From Nostoc sp. PCC 7120 = FACHB-418 (GTDB lineage: Bacteria; Cyanobacteriota; Cyanobacteriia; Cyanobacteriales; Nostocaceae): a stretch of 32,000 nt of DNA. The position numbers were made by a program, and so were the translations under genes. Positions within the stretch are counted from its first letter, which is position 1. The number at the start of each line of letters is the position of its first letter. Where the stretch lies: NCBI RefSeq assembly GCF_000009705.1, contig NC_003272.1, positions 5,970,001-6,002,000 of the forward strand, written 5' to 3'. Below are positions 6,127 to 23,698 of the stretch, in pieces. The notes beneath the pieces are model-generated. The model ran no database searches. It was not told the DNA's origin and was given only the letters and a program-made list of their open reading frames with translations.

Positions 6127-7017
6127 CTATTTCCGATTTTCTCCTCGTAATCGAGGATTGACAAATTCATTTAACCCCTCTCCTAGTAGTGATAACCCTA
6201 CTACCATAAATGTCATTGCTAAACCGGGAAATAGTGTAGTCCACCAAATCCCAGTTGGTAATGCTTCTAGAGCTTGTTTTAAATCAAGTCCCCATTCTGG
6301 TACTTCTTCCGGTAATCCTAGCCCTAAAAAACCCAAACCGCCTAGTACCAAAATTGCATCGGCGGCGTTAAGGGTAAAAAGTACGGGTACGCTTTGAATG
6401 ACGTTGAAAAACAGATATCGAGAAAGCACAATCCAAGTAGAAGCCCCCATTGCTTGAGCTGCTTCGATGAATACTTCAGTTTTGACGCTGACGGTGTGGT
6501 TACGCACAACGCGGTAGTATTGGGGAATGTATGCGATACTAATAGCGATCGCTGCATTTAAGATTCCTCTGCCTACTACAAACGCCAGTGTTACCGACAA
6601 TAGCAGTCCTGGTAAGGTGTAGATACTGTCCATGAGAAACAGTAATGCCTTATCTAACCTACCGCCAAGGTAGCCACTCAGCATTCCCAATGGCACGCCA
6701 ACTATCATACTCAGCGCCGTGGCTAAAATTACCACTTGCAACGCTGCTTGTGCGCCAAATAATGTCCGAGAGAAAACATCATGTCCTAAAAGAGTCGTGC
6801 CGAACCAATGTTTGGCTGATGGTGCTTCTTGAGGTGTGTTAGCCAGAAACTCTCTGGGGTTTTGTAGCCATCCCCAACTTTGGAATACAGGCGCGAAGAA
6901 TGCCAAGAAGATGAAAAATAGAGTGATAGCTAACCCAACCAGCATTAATTTTTGGGAAAGGTTGGGCTTTTTGACAAAAGATCCCCATTTTGGCAGTATA
7001 CGTTTAGTGATGGTCAT
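6127..7017 (-). CDS. ABC transporter permease, oligopeptide/dipeptide (OppC/DppC) type
   Basis: A multi-TM protein with an N-terminal anchor helix and a BPD-transporter EAA-like region (IEAAQAMGASTWIVLSRYLFFNV). Confidence 0.85.
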   Translation of the reverse strand: MTITKRILPKWGSFVKKPNLSQKLMLVGLAITLFFIFLAFFAPVFQSWGWLQNPREFLANTPQEAPSAKHWFGTTLLGHDVFSRTLFGAQAALQVVILATALSMIVGVPLGMLSGYLGGRLDKALLFLMDSIYTLPGLLLSVTLAFVVGRGILNAAIAISIAYIPQYYRVVRNHTVSVKTEVFIEAAQAMGASTWIVLSRYLFFNVIQSVPVLFTLNAADAILVLGGLGFLGLGLPEEVPEWGLDLKQALEALPTGIWWTTLFPGLAMTFMVVGLSLLGEGLNEFVNPRLRGENRK

Positions 7018-7127
7018 GAGCGATCGCCTGCATAGCGCAAGATACGCTGACCATTTTACATATCAATGTGAAGATTGGGGATTAGTGTATATTTATATTG
7101 TACTCGAAGCTCTCATGAGGGCTGTCA

Positions 7128-7589
7128 ATGAATAAAGTATTGGATGAAACCCTGTCCCTAAAAGTTGCTGAAAGCATCAAAAGCAAGGCCAATAAGCCCT
7201 TTGATAATGCTTATAAAGCTGCATTAGCAACACAAGGAGCCGCTTATGTCCAAGGATTTTTGGTCGCAGGTAAGCCATACAAACCTAAAGAACATGGTTG
7301 GATTGAGGTAGGGGATAGTGTTATTGACCCTACACTACCTCATCTGCATAAGAAGTCTGAAGAACTCTGGTATTTTGCTGCACAAAGTTTGAGTGTGAAA
7401 AAACTCAAAGCAGTTATAGAAGAGTCAAAGGAAGATTATCCCGAAGATGACCCATTACCCATCTATGGCGAAGCACCTTACGAATATTATGGTGATATCA
7501 TGCTGGGTGGTCAGGAATATGTAGATGCTTATCAAGCCGCAGAGGCAAAATGTCAGGAATTGCAAGCAATCCAAGCTCAAAATAATTAA
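7128..7589 (+). CDS. Hypothetical protein
   Basis: A 153-aa ORF with an ATG start and an acidic, soluble-looking sequence. No family was recognised. Confidence 0.45.
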   Translation: MNKVLDETLSLKVAESIKSKANKPFDNAYKAALATQGAAYVQGFLVAGKPYKPKEHGWIEVGDSVIDPTLPHLHKKSEELWYFAAQSLSVKKLKAVIEESKEDYPEDDPLPIYGEAPYEYYGDIMLGGQEYVDAYQAAEAKCQELQAIQAQNN

Positions 7590-16171: not shown

Positions 16172-16361
16172 GGTTTGGGAGTAGGGGGGTATGGTTGTTT
16201 AACTTTTACATGAATCGGATAACTGTTCGACTTTGCAGCCTACCAAGCTATCCGACTCGGTTTGATATTCGGAGATTGTCATCAACCTCACTGGATTAAA
16301 CCTGGACTCTTATTTGGTACTCCCGATAAATTCCCATTTACCAGTTCTGACACAAAGAGTA

Positions 16362-16478
16362 CTGCCCCGCACAACCACAACCCGAAAACCTACGTTGTTG
16401 TTCCTGTTGTCACGCGCGTTCCTGTTGCGATTCGCCGAACGGCAATTCCTGGGATTGTTGTTCCACGAACCACCGCGC
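16362..16478 (-). repeat. DGR template repeat (TR)
   Basis: A non-coding copy of the 3' end of the 18219-19316 ORF, lying directly after the RT stop. In the target frame it reads [41 protein letters not shown] (AAC/AAT-rich). The last 23 nt (cgggttgtggttgtgcggggcag) are identical to the VR. Confidence 0.8.
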
Positions 16479-16505
16479 AGCAGTCGGTGTCGCCTAACCC
16501 ACTTT

Positions 16506-17726
16506 TTAAATTAACATGGCTAAGTCAAAAATTGAACTACTAAATATTCTCTGGCGCAATTGCCATGTGTCGCCGTGCTTTAAGTGGGCAACCCAACTTT
16601 GTGTTGATTGGGTTAAATGTTGAGCATCAATTTTACCTTCATCATAGTCTCGAAGCATTTGTCGTAATCTTTTTCTTCCTAAACGCAGATTATCACTGCG
16701 TACACGAATCTGGTTTGGTAAAATGCGAAACCCAACAAAATTCGCTCCATGTTTCGTTTCAAATAATTGGCTTTTTATTGGATGGATTTTTAGTCTTAAA
16801 CTCGTAAGATATTCTTCTATTATGACTCTAGCAGTTTCTAAAAATGCTTTGTCATCTGAAAATAAAGCAAAATCATCAACATAGCGAATATATTTAAATG
16901 CTTGAAGTTGTTCTTTGACAAAATGGTCAAAATTATTTAGGTAGACATTAGCAAAAAACTGACTCGTCAGATTGCCAATTGGTAAACCACATCTTCTTTC
17001 TAAAGGTGCTAACAGATTATCACCCGGAAAGTAGTTAATAACTGGTTCTTGGAAATTACTGTTATCAATAATTGTGTTAATTAGCCAGAGTGTATCAGGG
17101 CATTTTATTTTACGATATATAAGGTGTTTTAAAATTTTATGGTCAATACTGGGGAAATATTTACGAATATCAGCTTGGAAGACATAATGGCTAGAACGAG
17201 AAAATTGTGTAAAGCGACGCAAAGCACGATGAGAACCAAAACCCACCCGATTGGCGTAGGAGTCACTAATAAATGTGCGTTCAAATATGGGAACAATTAT
17301 GTTATAGAGGGCATGATGCACAACTCTATCACGATAGGGAGCAGCCGAAATCATACGCGGCTTGGGTTCATAAATTTGAAATGTTTTATATATTCCTGGC
17401 AAGTATGTTTTGCTTTGTAATTCTTCTTGTAGTTGAAATAATTCTGACTCTAAATTGTAATTAAACTCTAAAATATTTGGCTCTTCAGTTCATTTTATGG
17501 AACAGAATAATAAATAAAACCCAAAGATAGCCTGTATTCATTGCTGTGACTGGGTTTTAAGTTTTTGAGCCTTTCTATAAAACTGTGATTTTAATGCTCC
17601 ACCATAAAACCAACGCAAGAGCCAAATATTTTCTCGAAAGCGTTTACCTCGCTGTGCTTTCTTTGCTGCTAATAATAAGTTATCAAATGTTATAATTTCA
17701 CTCCAAAGATTGCCGTGTCTTTTCAT
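16506..17726 (-). pseudogene. DGR reverse transcriptase, interrupted by a MITE
   Basis: The N-terminal fragment is 17726-17538 ([34 protein letters not shown]...). The C-terminal fragment is 17471-16506 ([55 protein letters not shown]...[16 protein letters not shown]...[11 protein letters not shown]). Removing 153 nt restores one 355-codon ORF. Confidence 0.85.
17478..17624. mobile_element. Miniature inverted-repeat element (~147 bp) inserted in the RT gene
   Basis: The terminal inverted repeats are tggctcttcagttcatttta and taaaaccaacgcaagagcca. It is flanked by a direct AATATT at 17472-17477 and 17625-17630. It has no coding capacity and places in-frame stops in the RT. Confidence 0.7.
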
Positions 17727-17777
17727 CTATAGGACTCATATTTGATTTTTGAACAGATACGTAGTGGCGTGTCATTC

Positions 17778-18122
17778 TTATACATCTCTATTTTTTTGTT
17801 GTTTTATCCAGCCACCTAAATCCATGCCAATCTCATTTAACAGCTTTTGGGCATACTCATAACGTTCTGTTTTGATTAAGTTAAAATCTAGGAGTAGGCG
17901 AGTTTGATAACGTAAGATATCTAACTTACTATTTAAGGACTCTAAATAAATTAATTTCTGTTTAGCGTACCGTGCTAGGATTATAGCATCTAGTAAATTG
18001 TATAATTCTGTAATAATCCGATCGCCTAGTAATAACTTATGATCTCTGGGGAGGCGATTTAAAATTGGTACGTACCACTTGATTAAATCCTATGTTTTTT
18101 GTATTATAAGTAAATCACTCAT
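17778..18122 (-). pseudogene. avd: DGR accessory variability determinant (avd) with an in-frame amber codon
   Basis: The hand translation is MSDLLIIQKT*DLIKWYVPILNRLPRDHKLLLGDRIITELYNLLDAIILARYAKQKLIYLESLNSKLDILRYQTRLLLDFNLIKTERYEYAQKLLNEIGMDLGGWIKQQKNRDV. The TAG is at 18090-18092. The gene sits between the target and the RT as in canonical DGRs. Confidence 0.75.
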
Positions 18123-18218
18123 CCAAGAAATCTCAAAAAATTTGAGCGCGCAGAGCGCGAAACCTTAAGAATGGTAAAGAAAAAAGTGCAGAGTGCTAAA
18201 GGGCAAGAGAGTAAAGTG

Positions 18219-19316
18219 CTAAGAAAGCCTGCCCCGCACAACCACAACCCGACAACCCACGCGCTCGTTCCTGTCGTCGCGCGTGTTACTGAGGCGACTC
18301 AACGAACGGCAACCCCTGGGATAGTAGTTCCACGAACCACCACGCAGCAGACGTCGCTGATTATCATTATTAATTAGCCATGCACTACCATCAGTTGGTG
18401 CATTATTATAATTTTCCTGCCACTCATCCTGACACCATTCCCATATATTACCACACATATCAAATAAACCAAAGGGGTTAGCAGGAAATTCTCCCACATT
18501 GGTTGTTTGTCCTCGATATTCACCCCTGGGAGAAGAACCATAGGTGTGATTTCCGTCATAATTCGCCAACTCAGTTGTAATCGTTGCGCCACAATAAAAC
18601 GGTGTAGTCGTTCCCCCGCGACAAGCATATTCCCATTCGGCTTCACTGGGTAAGCGATATATCTGACCAGTCTTTTTAGATAGTCTGGTGCAAAATTCAA
18701 CCGCATCATCCCAGGAAATACGCTCAACGGGACGATTAGCACCTTTAAAGCGAGATGGGTCAGATTTTAAATCAATATTTACTTTATCAAAAGCGGCAAC
18801 GGCTGCCCATTGAGCTTGGGTTACGGGAAATTTCCCCATGAAAAAGGGTTGAATGGTGACGTTGTGCTGTGGACTTTCAGAATCATCTCGTCCTTCTTCA
18901 TTGTCTGGCGAACCCATGAGGAATTTACCGCCGGGAATGGACACCATCTCTAGCGTTACACCATTACCCAAGTCTTCTGCAAAAAATTCTGCACTTCCCT
19001 GACTGCGCTCAATAATTTTTCCTTGAGCGTCCACATTCACAGTTTCAAACTCAAATTTCTTGGCTTTAAGGGGTTCTTCAGATACAGGCGGTTTCTGTTT
19101 ACCAAGAATCCGTTCTTCTATAGGTGCAACATCTTCATCTCGCAGACTTAAGATATTTTGCAAGCGTTTGAGAGCCTTGCGCCTTGCTTGGGAAAGAGGA
19201 TATTGTTTTATCTTAGACAACTCTTGCTCATAAAGTTGCAGTTTTTCTTGGCGTTTTCTATGAGGTTCGAGAACTTCAAATTCAATTAAATTAGTATCAT
19301 CAATAGATAAATTCAA
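18219..19316 (-). CDS. DGR target protein, FGE-sulfatase / C-type-lectin fold; likely the 3' part of a longer caspase fusion ORF
   Basis: Has FGE-type motifs (HNVTIQPFFMGKFPVTQAQW, RPVERISWDDAVEFC, YRLPSEAEWEYACRGG, MCGNIWEWCQD, LRGGSW). The track start is a TTG. The same frame stays open, with no start codon, up to 19466. Confidence 0.8.
   Translation of the reverse strand: MNLSIDDTNLIEFEVLEPHRKRQEKLQLYEQELSKIKQYPLSQARRKALKRLQNILSLRDEDVAPIEERILGKQKPPVSEEPLKAKKFEFETVNVDAQGKIIERSQGSAEFFAEDLGNGVTLEMVSIPGGKFLMGSPDNEEGRDDSESPQHNVTIQPFFMGKFPVTQAQWAAVAAFDKVNIDLKSDPSRFKGANRPVERISWDDAVEFCTRLSKKTGQIYRLPSEAEWEYACRGGTTTPFYCGATITTELANYDGNHTYGSSPRGEYRGQTTNVGEFPANPFGLFDMCGNIWEWCQDEWQENYNNAPTDGSAWLINNDNQRRLLRGGSWNYYPRGCRSLSRLSNTRDDRNERVGCRVVVVRGRLS
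18229..18345 (-). repeat. DGR variable repeat (VR) at the 3' end of the target gene
   Basis: A 117-nt match to 16362-16478. It encodes [41 protein letters not shown]. Confidence 0.8.
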
Positions 19317-19461
19317 TATACGCCTAAATTCAAATAGATAAGGGCGGTTAGCTTCAATAATTTCTTCAATTTCTCCTTCATCACCAAAAACAATTGTCTC
19401 AAATTCCTTGCGATACTTCAGTTTGGGGTCATCCTTCGGTGATTTTGCAAGAAGAATTGGC

Positions 19462-20172
19462 TCACCTTTTTTTTAGGTAATATAATTCTGGTGTCATGTT
19501 GGGAGATTCTTCCTGCACTTTGCTTTTCGCATATTCATGCAACTCATCTACCGCAATCCAACCATCGCCATTTTTATCGGCTGCACCTTTTTCAATGCCT
19601 TCTACTAAATAATTGGTGTAAATCCCTAAGCCAAAATCATCAGACTCAAAGGCATATTGTGTAGAAGTAGAAGCCGTGAGAATCGCCCTTCCCTCACCGC
19701 CTAAATACTGTTGCAGGTTAATCTCACCACTATCCCTGGCTGTAAAACCTTTGGCAAATGCACCACTAAAACAACAATCTAAAATTACTACCTGTCGCTT
19801 AAATGTCTTGAGGCTCATCCAGCCTTGTACATCTCTAGCAGCTATAGCTGAAGCTGTCCTTAATTTTCCCTGATCTTTGCGAGTGTTACGAGTGGAAAAG
19901 TAAAAATGACCGTCTTCTACGGTGACACCATGACCAGAAAAATACAAAAGCCCCAGGTCATCTTTCTCACACTTGAAGTAAAAATCCTCGATAGCCTCGG
20001 CCATTTCTTGCCGTGAGGGATTTTCTAGGACTTTGACCGCATCAAAACCACCCATTTCAGGGTCTAGCAAAACGCGCTGCATCGCCTCAACATCCTTCAC
20101 AGCTTTTGGTAATGGTGCTAATGTCGGCTCATCATATTCACTAATCCCAATTAACAGTGCTACCTTAGCCAT
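19462..20172 (-). CDS. Caspase-like peptidase (C14, orthocaspase) with a C-terminal EF-hand
   Basis: The catalytic His is in LLYFSGHG and the catalytic Cys in VVILDCCFSGAF. The canonical EF-hand loop is DKNGDGWIAVDE (19543-19578). The ATG at 20172 (MAKVALLIGISEY) is preferred over the TTG at 20238. Confidence 0.8.
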   Translation of the reverse strand: MAKVALLIGISEYDEPTLAPLPKAVKDVEAMQRVLLDPEMGGFDAVKVLENPSRQEMAEAIEDFYFKCEKDDLGLLYFSGHGVTVEDGHFYFSTRNTRKDQGKLRTASAIAARDVQGWMSLKTFKRQVVILDCCFSGAFAKGFTARDSGEINLQQYLGGEGRAILTASTSTQYAFESDDFGLGIYTNYLVEGIEKGAADKNGDGWIAVDELHEYAKSKVQEESPNMTPELYYLKKR

Positions 20173-20575
20173 TGTTGCTGTCTTGGTTGTTTCTGGCCTG
20201 ATTAATGAGTTCCTCGGTTTTTTGTTTGATGTATTCAATATCTTCTTTGCTATTCGCTTTCCCCCTAAATTTTGCTCCTTCCTTGGTGATTTCTATGTCT
20301 AGTTCCAAATTCCTACCAATACCACGACCTAAAAAGTCAAATAAAGGCTTGATTAAAGCAGGACTGACTAGGGCTGTGAATTTTCCCGGCGAAAAACCAC
20401 CTAAAGCCTTGGAACCTGTTGGTACTTCTGTAATGGGAACTAAAGCTGCATCTTCTACCCCGTCCACTTCTCTTAACTGGGGTAGCAAATTTTGTACTTT
20501 TTCTTGCAATTCAGCATCATCTAAGCCTGGTTCATTCAAGGAAATAGTTATCTGAACCTGAGATGTTGTTTCCAT
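20165..20575 (-). CDS. Small uncharacterised protein translationally coupled to the caspase gene
   Basis: A 136-aa ORF with an ATG start. Its stop overlaps the caspase start in ATGGCTAA. No enzyme motif was found. Confidence 0.6.
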   Translation of the reverse strand: METTSQVQITISLNEPGLDDAELQEKVQNLLPQLREVDGVEDAALVPITEVPTGSKALGGFSPGKFTALVSPALIKPLFDFLGRGIGRNLELDIEITKEGAKFRGKANSKEDIEYIKQKTEELINQARNNQDSNNG

Positions 20576-22219: not shown

Positions 22220-22771
22220 TCATACACCTATAAGGCGTTCAACTCGTATTGATACATCAGGAAAGGCTAAGGGTGAAACAGTTCCTGTTGTGAGGGTTAG
22301 TTCGGTCGTATATTGCTGATTGTTGAGGTCACGAAAGACTTTTAACTGGGGACTTTTTAAGTTAACAACCCAATATTCAGTAATACCAGCCTCAGCATAG
22401 ATTTCTTTTTTATCACCCAAGTCTTTAGTTAAGGTGGCATTAGCAAATTCAATTACCCAAAAAATATCTTCTGGGTAAGGGTGATGTTTTAAGTAAGTCT
22501 CACCTAAAGGTTTGACAATAGCAACATCGGGTGCAGGTTCAGAATCGTTAGGTAAGGTAATTGGTTTAGCATCACGGATTTTTACTCGCTCACCAAGTAA
22601 TGTGCGGAGATAATCTGCGGCTTCTGTGTTGTAGTAGGCGTGAGGTTCTCGTTCTGGAGGCATAACAATCAGGTCGCCGCGCAATAATTCCAGAGGCTGG
22701 TCGTCAAAAATGCCTGCTTCTATTGCTCGGTGATAGCGTTCTATTGTCCATTTATAGGTAGTTACGGTCAT
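22220..22771 (-). CDS. Uma2-family (DUF820) PD-(D/E)xK endonuclease
   Basis: ELLRGDLIVMPPEREPH...PDVAIV...VIEFANATL..D...K..YA.AGI.EYWVV is typical of cyanobacterial Uma2 proteins. Confidence 0.8.
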   Translation of the reverse strand: MTVTTYKWTIERYHRAIEAGIFDDQPLELLRGDLIVMPPEREPHAYYNTEAADYLRTLLGERVKIRDAKPITLPNDSEPAPDVAIVKPLGETYLKHHPYPEDIFWVIEFANATLTKDLGDKKEIYAEAGITEYWVVNLKSPQLKVFRDLNNQQYTTELTLTTGTVSPLAFPDVSIRVERLIGV

Positions 22772-23002: not shown

Positions 23003-23698
23003 ATGATATCTGCTGAGAAAACCTCTCAACTTTTGGTAATTCCCCCATTAGAAAATGGCGATAGGCTCACCCGTTATGAATTTGAGCGCAGATATTATGC
23101 TATGCCTAATTTGAAAAAAGCAGAATTGATTGAAGGAATTGTTTACGTGGCATCACCGTTAAGAATCAAAAGTCATGGCGAACCCCATGCTTATATTATG
23201 ACTTGGTTGGGTGTTTACAAAGCAGCAACACCGGGCGTAGGTTTAGCCGACAATACTACAGTCATCATTGATGCCGATAATGAACCCCAACCAGATGCTT
23301 TACTCAGAATAGAACAAGGAGGGCGATCGCGCATTAATCAAGATGATTATTTAGAAGGTGCGCCAGAATTAATTGTAGAAATCGCTGCTTCTACTGCTTC
23401 CTATGATTTACATGAAAAATTAAAAGTGTATCGGCGTAATCAAGTCCAAGAGTATTTAGTTTGGCGAGTTTATGATAATCAATTTGATTGGTTTAAGTTA
23501 CAAGCAGGTGAGTATATACAGCTTGAAGTAAATACAGATAATATATTGCGTTCACAAACATTTCCGGGGTTGTGGTTAGCGAAGTCTGCTTTATTATCAG
23601 GCGACTTAGCTACAGTATTAGCTGTTTTGCAGCAGGGATTATCTACACCAGAACATCAAGACTTCAAAAAGTCTCAAGGGAAACTTTCTTTCTCTTAA
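23003..23698 (+). CDS. Uma2-family (DUF820) PD-(D/E)xK endonuclease
   Basis: Reads AELIEGIVYVASPLRIKSHGEPH...PDALLRI...PELIVEIAASTASYDLHEKLKVYRRNQVQEYLVW. Confidence 0.8.
   Translation: MISAEKTSQLLVIPPLENGDRLTRYEFERRYYAMPNLKKAELIEGIVYVASPLRIKSHGEPHAYIMTWLGVYKAATPGVGLADNTTVIIDADNEPQPDALLRIEQGGRSRINQDDYLEGAPELIVEIAASTASYDLHEKLKVYRRNQVQEYLVWRVYDNQFDWFKLQAGEYIQLEVNTDNILRSQTFPGLWLAKSALLSGDLATVLAVLQQGLSTPEHQDFKKSQGKLSFS

Follow-up and report, generated by a model that had tools for sequence, protein, structure and literature searches.

The locus described here corresponds to the all5014/all5016 DGR of Nostoc (Anabaena) sp. PCC 7120, and our analysis suggests that it is a fossil in which rewriting of the VR halted, point substitutions were then fixed mainly in the VR, and the RT and avd genes were inactivated later. 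We give this reading a probability of about 0.7. It lies in a stretch of 32,000 nucleotides that was analysed as a whole and is called the window throughout. Two DGRs have been described in this strain, with the RTs all3497 and all5014; for the all5014 DGR the VP is all5016, and all3226 is a remote VP (PMC7517822). The locus studied here is the second of these catalogued DGRs. The all5014/all5016 DGR has been in the literature since 2004, and its imperfect adenine specificity is already on record in a 2012 supplement. A 2020 survey table enters the all5014 RT as not degraded, and DiGReF has it among the RTs without a DiGReF hit. The observation is real but ordinary, as the element is already known, and the significance of a catalogued DGR in a model cyanobacterium is modest. 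What is added here is how the element died, by a MITE insertion in the RT gene and a nonsense codon in avd; the finding that nearly all the non-adenine differences are on the VR side and not on the TR side; and an RT and TR without decay, so that VR rewriting was probably lost before the machinery. The features on which the argument draws are given below in window coordinates.

20165 to 20575, minus strand: ORF of 136 aa that overlaps the target start and is also found upstream of the target in related cassettes
18219 to 20172, minus strand: target gene (all5016 together with the caspase ORF upstream of it), coding for an EACC1-type caspase with an FGE-sulfatase/CLec domain (Pfam) fused at its C-terminus
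18229 to 18353, minus strand: VR, the last 41 codons of the target and the stop region, at the C-terminus of the FGE-sulfatase/CLec domain
18147 to 18159, minus strand: GC hairpin CGCGC-TCT-GCGCG in a conserved region downstream of the VR, intact in an alignment with three relatives
17778 to 18122, minus strand: avd pseudogene, codon 11 (18090-18092) being an in-frame TAG, Pfam bAvd 1.2e-19
17624 to 17726, minus strand: 5' fragment of the RT gene, codons 1-34, from its translation
17479 to 17623, no strand assigned: MITE-like insertion of 145 bp that splits the RT gene, with terminal inverted repeats GGCTCTT...AAGAGCC
16506 to 17478, minus strand: 3' fragment of the RT gene, with IGNLTSQ at 16959-16979 and YVDDF at 16869-16883, Pfam RVT_1 2.1e-22
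16362 to 16486, minus strand: TR, downstream of the RT gene, located as a direct repeat and by ungapped alignment, with 29 adenines, mostly in AAY codons
16362 to 16385, minus strand (VR copy at 18229-18252): identical TR/VR block of 24 nt, an IMH-type boundary, with flanks that diverge right 3' of the block
16205 to 16361, minus strand: structured RNA domain that follows the TR on its 3' side and is, with 93-99% identity, the most conserved segment of the cassettes

An RT, an Avd sequence, a CLec target and a repeat pair are all present, TR and VR lie near the RT, and the protein-coding target has the VR at its 3' end, which supports the assignment of the pair to a DGR in the first-pass annotation. 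In an ungapped computational alignment on the minus strand, TR and VR are one direct repeat of 125 nt, 83% identical, with the copies 1,867 bp apart. They differ at 21 positions, 13 of them among the 29 TR adenines and 8 among the 96 non-adenines. The enrichment at adenines (Fisher odds ratio 8.9, p=2.8e-5) bears out the earlier claim, made from a hand alignment, that the spectrum is biased towards adenine without being exclusive to it. The same eight non-adenine differences that had been listed by hand were recovered, namely CGC/CGT, GCG/TTG (two), AGG/AGT, GCG/ACG, CGT/CGC, the third base of AAC/GAG, and TTT/TGT. The earlier total of 21 holds for the 125-nt repeat and fails for the interval 16478-16362 to which it had been assigned, where we count 20 (12 at adenines and 8 elsewhere); the thirteenth adenine difference is at 16484, outside those limits. 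The denominators given with it, about 28 adenines and about 75 other sites, are replaced by the counts above. Positions 1 and 2 of AAY codons hold 11 of the 13 differences at adenines, which is a hallmark of DGRs. The adenine share of all differences, 62%, nevertheless falls short of the near-exclusive share by which DGRs are recognized. The non-adenine differences comprise four transitions and four transversions, six of them non-synonymous and two synonymous.

As in other DGRs, the repeat has an identical GC-rich 3' end, after which the flanks diverge. The identical block had been reported at 23 nt; it is present, and one nucleotide longer. The suggestion that it is IMH-like agrees with its position, as it stops exactly where the TR and VR flanks diverge and does so likewise in all relatives. 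The same 3' boundary, with a putative IMH role, is found in the three relatives that were aligned, Nostoc sp. CHAB 5844 (L011), Amazonocrinis nigriterrae CENA67 (L012) and a third cassette (L013). A 22-mer of the repeat 3' end occurs twice in the 32-kb window, against 0 occurrences expected by chance. The RNA domain beyond this boundary has 43 predicted pairs, two of them with compensatory changes, and presumably serves the RT-Avd complex as the priming portion of the DGR RNA. Rfam has no family that covers the TR or its flank.

The RT gene is not intact. After codon 34 it is interrupted by the 145-bp insertion and an 8-bp target-site duplication, AAATATTT, at 17471-17478 and 17624-17631. The insertion is built like a MITE: it is short and non-coding, terminal inverted repeats bound it, and the target site is duplicated; its arms of 44 nt are 77% complementary, with perfect 7-nt termini, and its predicted fold has an energy of -42 kcal/mol. 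No second copy is present within the 32-kb window, and six short-read Logan contigs break 28-29 nt into the element, as would be expected of a multicopy repeat. Excision of the MITE together with one duplicate gives an RT ORF of 355 codons, and the ORF is regained only when the 8-nt duplicate is removed as well. In the reconstructed protein IGNLTSQ occupies residues 199-205 and YVDDF residues 231-235, as in RTs of the DGR clade, and its identity to the uninterrupted DGR RTs of other Nostoc strains is 85-89%. The avd gene scores 134.8 bits against NCBIfam DivGenRetAVD (NF033474; cut-off 80) and carries a Tyr11->TAG change where the relatives have Tyr, reading IIQKTYDLIKW; the only downstream start called by other annotations is an ATC.

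Independent assemblies agree fully in the TR, the VR, the TAG and the MITE, and no ongoing diversification of the VR is seen in these consensus assemblies of one strain lineage. As all the assemblies are essentially of one laboratory strain, the invariant VR says little about the older history. The RT split by a MITE, the premature TAG in avd and the VR invariant among assemblies together sustain the earlier view that the element is dead. The target, in comparison, appears disrupted only in the reference. It matches NCBIfam caspase_w_EACC1 at 157 bits (cut-off 140) and its CLec domain at 3e-59, and in the window an extra A in an A8 run (19467-19474) breaks it in two; the other assemblies have A7 and a single ORF of 650 aa, one and the same sequence on 54 contigs, and the 365-aa form is found only on the 6,413,771-bp record. 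The two-ORF split in the reference is an A8 versus A7 homopolymer difference that is absent from the other assemblies. The 136-aa ORF has no family match in Pfam or NCBIfam, and its counterparts in L011 and L012 are 134 and 128 aa long, respectively.

For a baseline we used six cognate TR-VR pairs from related Nostocales DGRs with uninterrupted RT genes. These pairs have 85 differences at adenines and 3 elsewhere (85/88 at A), with 3/582 non-adenine sites changed. The contrast of 13 and 8 differences in the window with 85 and 3 in the relatives is significant (p=6e-5), as is that of 8/96 with 3/582 changed non-adenine sites (p=1.4e-5), and the window is therefore an outlier. One way to produce all 21 differences in a single event would be a last homing by an RT that also erred at non-adenines. 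The relatives do show a low level of such errors, at the 3/582 sites, and nothing specific to the window speaks for it. The non-adenine error would have to be about 8%, against about 0.5% in the relatives, and the RT is unsubstituted at every near-invariant position, which makes a low-fidelity homing scarcely credible.

Polarisation with ten related TRs places at least 6 of the 8 non-adenine changes on the VR, and the three TRs compared first carry the window-TR state at 6 of the 8 sites. Of 41 related TR/VR copies, none has the TT (positions 52-53) or the G (position 101) of the VR. Both fall on residues of the scaffold, which TRs as a rule shield from change, and give Ala624Leu and Phe640Cys; Ala624 is kept in 104/114 homologues and Phe640 in 109/114. 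On the TR side there is a single change, G->A at 16391 (position 96), which mimics an adenine difference; the G is common to all ten related TRs and to nearly all related VRs. By our own arithmetic the asymmetry of 6-8 VR changes to one TR change has a one-sided binomial p of 0.02-0.06, which is marginal alone.

This direction bears on the drift after death that had been proposed for the extra substitutions. In its simplest form there was one death, TR and VR have drifted equally since, and the eight non-adenine differences measure the time elapsed. The element is indeed dead, the heterogeneous mix of transitions and transversions and of non-synonymous and synonymous changes is as under neutrality, and position 96 supplies one change on the TR. 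Against equal drift stand the 6-8 VR changes to that one, and the state of the RT. With the MITE removed, its frame deviates at 0 of 116 near-invariant columns, where we calculate that about 12 deviations would be expected if it had been neutral over the whole TR-VR divergence time. The RT N/S on the window branch is a normal 25/26, against 16/22 for L011, and a relative-rate test revealed no excess or acceleration. The counterparts of the TR and of the RNA domain that follows it have 95-99% identity in another species. Drift after death is only part of the answer, and we consider a single symmetric decay unlikely.

The other explanation offered earlier was that the VR had last been rewritten from a different, intact TR, which could be the TR of all3497 or a resident TR that has since been replaced. 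The presence of a second DGR in PCC 7120 (PMC7517822) gives this some plausibility, as does the documented use of a TR in trans, with a perfect match at non-adenine sites, in Thiohalocapsa (PMC10907252), and at positions 12 and 66 the VR has the TR state of the L012/L013 lineage. Among 11 TRs, a set without the all3497 TR, the local TR is still the best match to the VR, with 8 non-adenine mismatches against at least 10 for the others. The states that only the VR has occur in none of the 41 related copies, and conserved scaffold residues have been replaced. Each of the 120 homologues among the matches listed lies closer than the all3497 RT, whose TR would accordingly be expected to diverge further rather than less. 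Nor does any recombination breakpoint separate the target from the RT-TR segment. That recombination had recently replaced the RT-TR module was considered separately and rejected, as the identity profile between the window and L011 parallels that between L011 and L012.

Database searches gave the different template no support. A strict TR pattern (built on the TR backbone, each of the eight non-adenine sites being either A or the VR state) had 0 matches in 185,579 species genomes, among which PCC 7120 is absent or masked, and a two-anchor scan of the same genome set found 44 TR/VR stretches, all in other cyanobacteria and none from PCC 7120. In metagenome contigs a relaxed TR/VR pattern had 0 matches, the strain's own copies included, and an RT protein scan found 80 loci, none from PCC 7120 cultures. 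Among the 120 matches listed in a protein search with the 650-aa target all3226 is absent, and all3497 is absent among the 120 listed for the Nodularia RT P0076. A template in trans is disfavoured, and we regard it as improbable.

An adaptive history might also be imagined, in which the non-adenine changes of the VR were advantageous and could not be encoded by the TR, and losing avd and RT was in turn selected, since further homing would have erased these changes. The changes are concentrated in the VR and mostly alter amino acids, and two independent inactivating lesions sit in a cassette that is otherwise undecayed. The ratio of six non-synonymous to two synonymous changes is, however, the neutral expectation, and those at Ala624 and Phe640 affect the structural scaffold instead of the usual variable positions. 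The whole target is accelerated, with N/S of 136/69 against 62/71 and an amino-acid p-distance 0.013-0.05 above that of sister sequences. The target gene evolves somewhat faster in the PCC 7120 lineage than in the relatives. Relaxation fits this better than adaptation, and a selected fixation of the VR seems to us a poor prospect.

We therefore return to a halt in VR rewriting that preceded the loss of the genes. By analogy with the DGR family, transcription would have covered the TR together with the conserved RNA domain on its 3' side, and RT-Avd would have made cDNA from that RNA while misincorporating opposite adenines. This cDNA would then have taken the place of the VR at the caspase-CLec gene's 3' end, with the shared 24-nt GC-rich block as the 3' limit. 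The 11 differences at AAY positions 1 and 2 may be the trace of the last such event. Rewriting of the VR would next have ceased, and ordinary point substitutions would have been fixed, mostly in the VR. Two inactivations, the avd nonsense codon and the RT MITE, probably followed later and, by sequence divergence, recently. As the RT frame is without decay, we infer that VR rewriting ended well ahead of the damage to RT and avd.

The make-up of the cassette, both lesions, the side on which the substitutions fell and the undecayed RT and TR are observed; the sequence of events and the reason for the early halt are inferred. Decayed cis elements downstream of the VR were considered and rejected, as the GC hairpin and its flank are conserved; with these elements apparently intact, there is no visible cause for an early arrest of homing. 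Selection on the RT and TR while the local VR was frozen would also have needed some selecting factor, and this counts against our explanation. We can only speculate, and think it rather doubtful, that RT, Avd, TR and the flanking RNA were long under purifying selection after the adjacent VR had frozen, the cassette having abandoned its cis target before dying. A possible reason for such prolonged selection is that the cassette served a remote target, for example all3226, or that the adjacent VR was deliberately frozen. If true, this would be a natural example of a DGR that left its own cis target before death. The locus is of use as a worked example for reading a degenerate TR/VR pair, and it calls for caution with PCC 7120 as a DGR model, since the all5014 cassette cannot work unless repaired.

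Similar DGRs with caspase-CLec targets and uninterrupted RT genes occur in other Nostocales, for example in the cassettes of Nostoc sp. CHAB 5844 and Amazonocrinis nigriterrae CENA67. These have the same order of a small ORF, a caspase-CLec target with a C-terminal VR, avd, RT, TR and RNA domain, with RT identity to the window of 82-85%, Avd identity of up to 92% and a shared 3' boundary. The window TR is 97.5% identical over 162 nt to that of CHAB 5844. Unlike the window, both have uninterrupted RT and avd genes, and their differences fall on adenines in 16/16 and 12/13 cases, as against 13/21; their genomic neighbourhoods are not syntenic with the window. On a JGI scaffold (L058) a VR is joined directly to the TR flank, which would imply a deletion of avd and RT, although the junction is possibly an assembly artefact since the scaffold has N-gaps and other missing segments.

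The all3497/alr3494/alr3495 DGR, with relatives in Nostoc punctiforme (Npun_F4892) and Nodularia spumigena, has an RT of the same family and CLec-ended targets; the all3497-type RT of Nodularia (P0076, locus L139) is 72% identical to that of the window. It differs in having one long and one short CLec target, and DiGReF records it as a clean DGR with two VRs. Thiohalocapsa PB-PSB1, with several DGR loci of which some have a disrupted RT (Dore et al. 2024, PMC10907252), poses the same question of whether a VR agrees with another TR at every non-adenine position. There, unlike here, the VRs match a distant TR perfectly at those sites and still vary (PMC10907252). The prototype DGR of Bordetella phage BPP-1 (brt, avd, TR, the mtd VR and IMH) resembles the window in its A-rich TR, its Avd partner, its GC-rich identical 3' block and a VR at the 3' end of a gene with a C-type-lectin fold. 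The TR of BPP-1 is between avd and RT, whereas that of the window is downstream of RT, and the window element differs further in being chromosomal and non-functional, with a caspase-CLec protein as its target.

The only long direct repeat that a repeat finder returned for the region is the pair formed by the template repeat (TR) and the variable repeat (VR) belonging to a diversity-generating retroelement (DGR). On the minus strand the cassette runs from a 136-aa ORF through a caspase ORF, an FGE-sulfatase/CLec ORF with the VR at its end, Avd and an RT with the DGR-type motifs IGNLTSQ and YVDDF to the TR.

Features of the DGR cassette (window coordinates)
20575-20165, minus strand: 136-aa ORF, first in the cassette
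Target N-terminus: caspase (Peptidase_C14), NCBIfam EACC1-associated type, 157 bits (cut-off 140)
18229-18353 and 16362-16486, minus strand: VR and TR, a direct repeat of 125 nt, 83% identical, 1,867 bp apart
18229-18252 and 16362-16385, minus strand: identical VR/TR 3' block, the 24 bases after the last mismatch
17778-18122, minus strand: avd pseudogene, NCBIfam DivGenRetAVD, 134.8 bits (cut-off 80)
17479-17623: 145-bp MITE-like insertion splitting the RT gene
16205-16361, minus strand: RNA domain 3' of the TR, ~155 nt, also found in the related locus L011 (9212-9380) and at seven other loci

In an ungapped alignment read on the minus strand, TR and VR differ at 21 of 125 positions. Thirteen of the 29 TR adenines are changed as against 8 of the 96 other bases, an 8.9-fold excess (Fisher p=2.8e-5), and positions 1-2 of AAY codons hold 11 of the 13 adenine-site differences. 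Beyond the 24-nt identical block the flanks diverge. These counts and the enrichment confirm, with minor corrections, the adenine-biased spectrum described in the first-pass annotation. The same eight non-adenine differences are recovered and the total of 21 stands, but only 20 fall inside the limits it had used, the thirteenth adenine-site difference being at 16484, and the identical 3' end has 24 bases rather than 23.

As a baseline we used cassettes with an uninterrupted RT, found via look-ups of the closest RT homologues. Those of Nostoc sp. CHAB 5844 (L011) and Amazonocrinis nigriterrae CENA67 (L012) have an annotated avd and the same architecture as the window cassette, while that of another Nostoc (L013) has a TIR-CLec target and is without an annotated avd. 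Another 44 TR/VR stretches came from scanning species genomes with two DNA anchors. Six cognate TR/VR pairs of relatives have 85 differences at adenines and 3 elsewhere, compared with 13 and 8 in the window (p=6e-5); the proportion of non-adenine sites changed is 3/582 in the relatives and 8/96 in the window (p=1.4e-5). The non-adenine excess is therefore a real anomaly for related Nostocales DGRs. In Nostoc mirabile CHAB5784 (L037, L044, L054) two VR-like copies differ from the TR recovered there at 15-16 non-adenine sites, and one fits the TR of another genome far better, with 1 non-adenine mismatch; this genome probably has several DGRs whose TRs differ.

Over 162 nt the window TR shares 97.5% identity with that of L011, and at 6 of the 8 non-adenine sites its state is found in the first three related TRs. 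Throughout 41 in-register copies, alignment positions 52-53 are GC and position 101 is T; the VR states TT and G occur in none of these copies. In the protein they are Ala624Leu and Phe640Cys; among 114 homologues, 104 have Ala at the first of these sites and 109 have Phe at the second. Positions 70, 75 and 90 deviate in a few VR copies only, and positions 12 and 66 are polymorphic among related TRs, the closest (L011) having the window-TR state. Position 96 (16391) is A in the window TR and G in the window VR, in all ten related TRs and in nearly all related VRs, which most simply reflects a G to A change in the TR. The site states thus place six to eight ordinary substitutions in the VR lineage and one in the TR lineage.

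The same differences could have arisen if the VR was last written in trans from another TR. Among 11 TRs compared, however, the local one fits best, with 8 non-adenine mismatches against at least 10 for the others, and a strict pattern for a TR able to write the window VR had no match in 185,579 species genomes; none of the collection scans brought up PCC 7120 itself. The RT of the second DGR in this genome, all3497, ranks below all 120 homologues listed, from which a greater rather than a smaller divergence of its TR is to be expected; neither all3497 nor the remote target all3226 was among the matches listed in further protein searches. The VR-only states also displace scaffold residues that the TRs of related DGRs never vary. 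Since there is a documented case elsewhere of a TR being used in trans (PMC10907252), we give this explanation a low probability rather than zero, and prefer substitution chiefly in the VR lineage.

The RT is interrupted past codon 34 by the 145-bp element, which has terminal inverted repeats and is flanked by an 8-bp duplication, AAATATTT. Removal of the element and one duplicate restores a 355-codon ORF, and no other deletion length does so. Six short-read assemblies end 28-29 nt inside the element, as expected at a multicopy repeat, which suggests that it belongs to a multicopy family in the PCC 7120 genome. The annotated all5014 protein is just the 282-aa C-terminal fragment downstream of it. 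In avd, a TAG at codon 11 takes the place of the Tyr found in three relatives (IIQKTYDLIKW). TR, VR, the avd TAG and the MITE are without variation across all independent assemblies examined. An A8 run (19467-19474), one base longer than the A7 of all other assemblies, splits the caspase-CLec target in the window into ORFs of 258 and 365 aa; the unsplit 650-aa protein is found on 54 contigs. The 365-aa form is restricted to the 6,413,771-bp record, so that the split probably reflects either an error in sequencing the reference or a mutation of a sub-strain.

Once the MITE is taken out, the RT conforms to all 116 columns that are near-invariant in 118 homologues. By our own rough arithmetic, about a dozen deviations would be expected had it been neutral throughout the TR/VR non-adenine divergence (~9% in total). 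Its branch-specific non-synonymous/synonymous changes are 25/26, versus 16/22 for L011, and a relative-rate test showed no excess. Outside the VR the target shows acceleration (136/69 versus 62/71 for L011), its amino-acid distance to outgroups being 0.013-0.05 greater than for its sisters. Conservation within the cassette is highest in the TR and its 3' flank (93-99% between species). The RNA domain in this flank, which matches no Rfam family, has predicted conserved stem-loops that the window copy retains save one pair, lost through a single-base deletion in a T-run just past the TR. On the simplest ordering, VR rewriting would have stopped first, point substitutions would then have built up in the target under relaxed constraint, and the avd and RT lesions would have arisen last, only recently. 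The earlier suggestion of drift after the death of the element holds as to ordinary point changes, mainly in the VR, but not as to timing: the RT is undecayed and the arrest of the VR is placed before the lesions. No cause of this arrest came to light: downstream of the VR both the hairpin and the flank are conserved, and an identity profile gave no recombination breakpoints.

Related cassettes (the window, L011, L012 and L013) lie in wholly different gene neighbourhoods across Nostocales genomes, which suggests that the cassette moves as a whole. Uma2-family genes are often nearby (window 22220-22771 and 23003-23698; L011 4023-4592). The 136-aa ORF, which overlaps the target start by 8 nt, also precedes the caspase-CLec targets of related cassettes, where it is conserved. 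Pfam and NCBIfam gave no match for it; the NCBIfam name of the adjoining caspase suggests that it may be the EACC1 partner. At 7000-7200 of one scaffold (L058, JGI 3300014786) a VR is joined directly to the downstream flank of the TR, with loss of 1,867 bp comprising avd and RT via the shared 24-nt block. If real, this junction shows excision of a DGR by TR/VR recombination; it may be an assembly artefact, because N-gaps occur in this scaffold and further segments are lacking.

The literature already contains both the element and the spectrum noted in the first-pass annotation. The defining oddity of the locus has been on record since 2012, in an entry that we take to be all5014, its GI offset from all3497 (1,517) being equal to that between the two BAB accessions. 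Nostoc sp. PCC 7120 has been reported to have two DGRs, with the RTs all3497 and all5014, the latter with target all5016 and remote target all3226 (Vallota-Eastman et al. 2020, PMC7517822, Table S1). The same table answers 'RT degraded?' with 'No' for this RT, a label that needs correcting. New details, of local interest only, are the MITE insertion in the RT and the nonsense codon in avd, the direction of the substitutions towards the VR side, and the absence of decay in RT and TR. The locus has the RT motifs, Avd, TR/VR pair, 3' boundary and CLec target of a DGR; an intact RT, adenine-exclusive differences and, in the assemblies examined, ongoing variation are absent. It appears to descend from, and to work like, a canonical CLec-targeting DGR; it is a degenerate member of this known family, and the genome is well studied.
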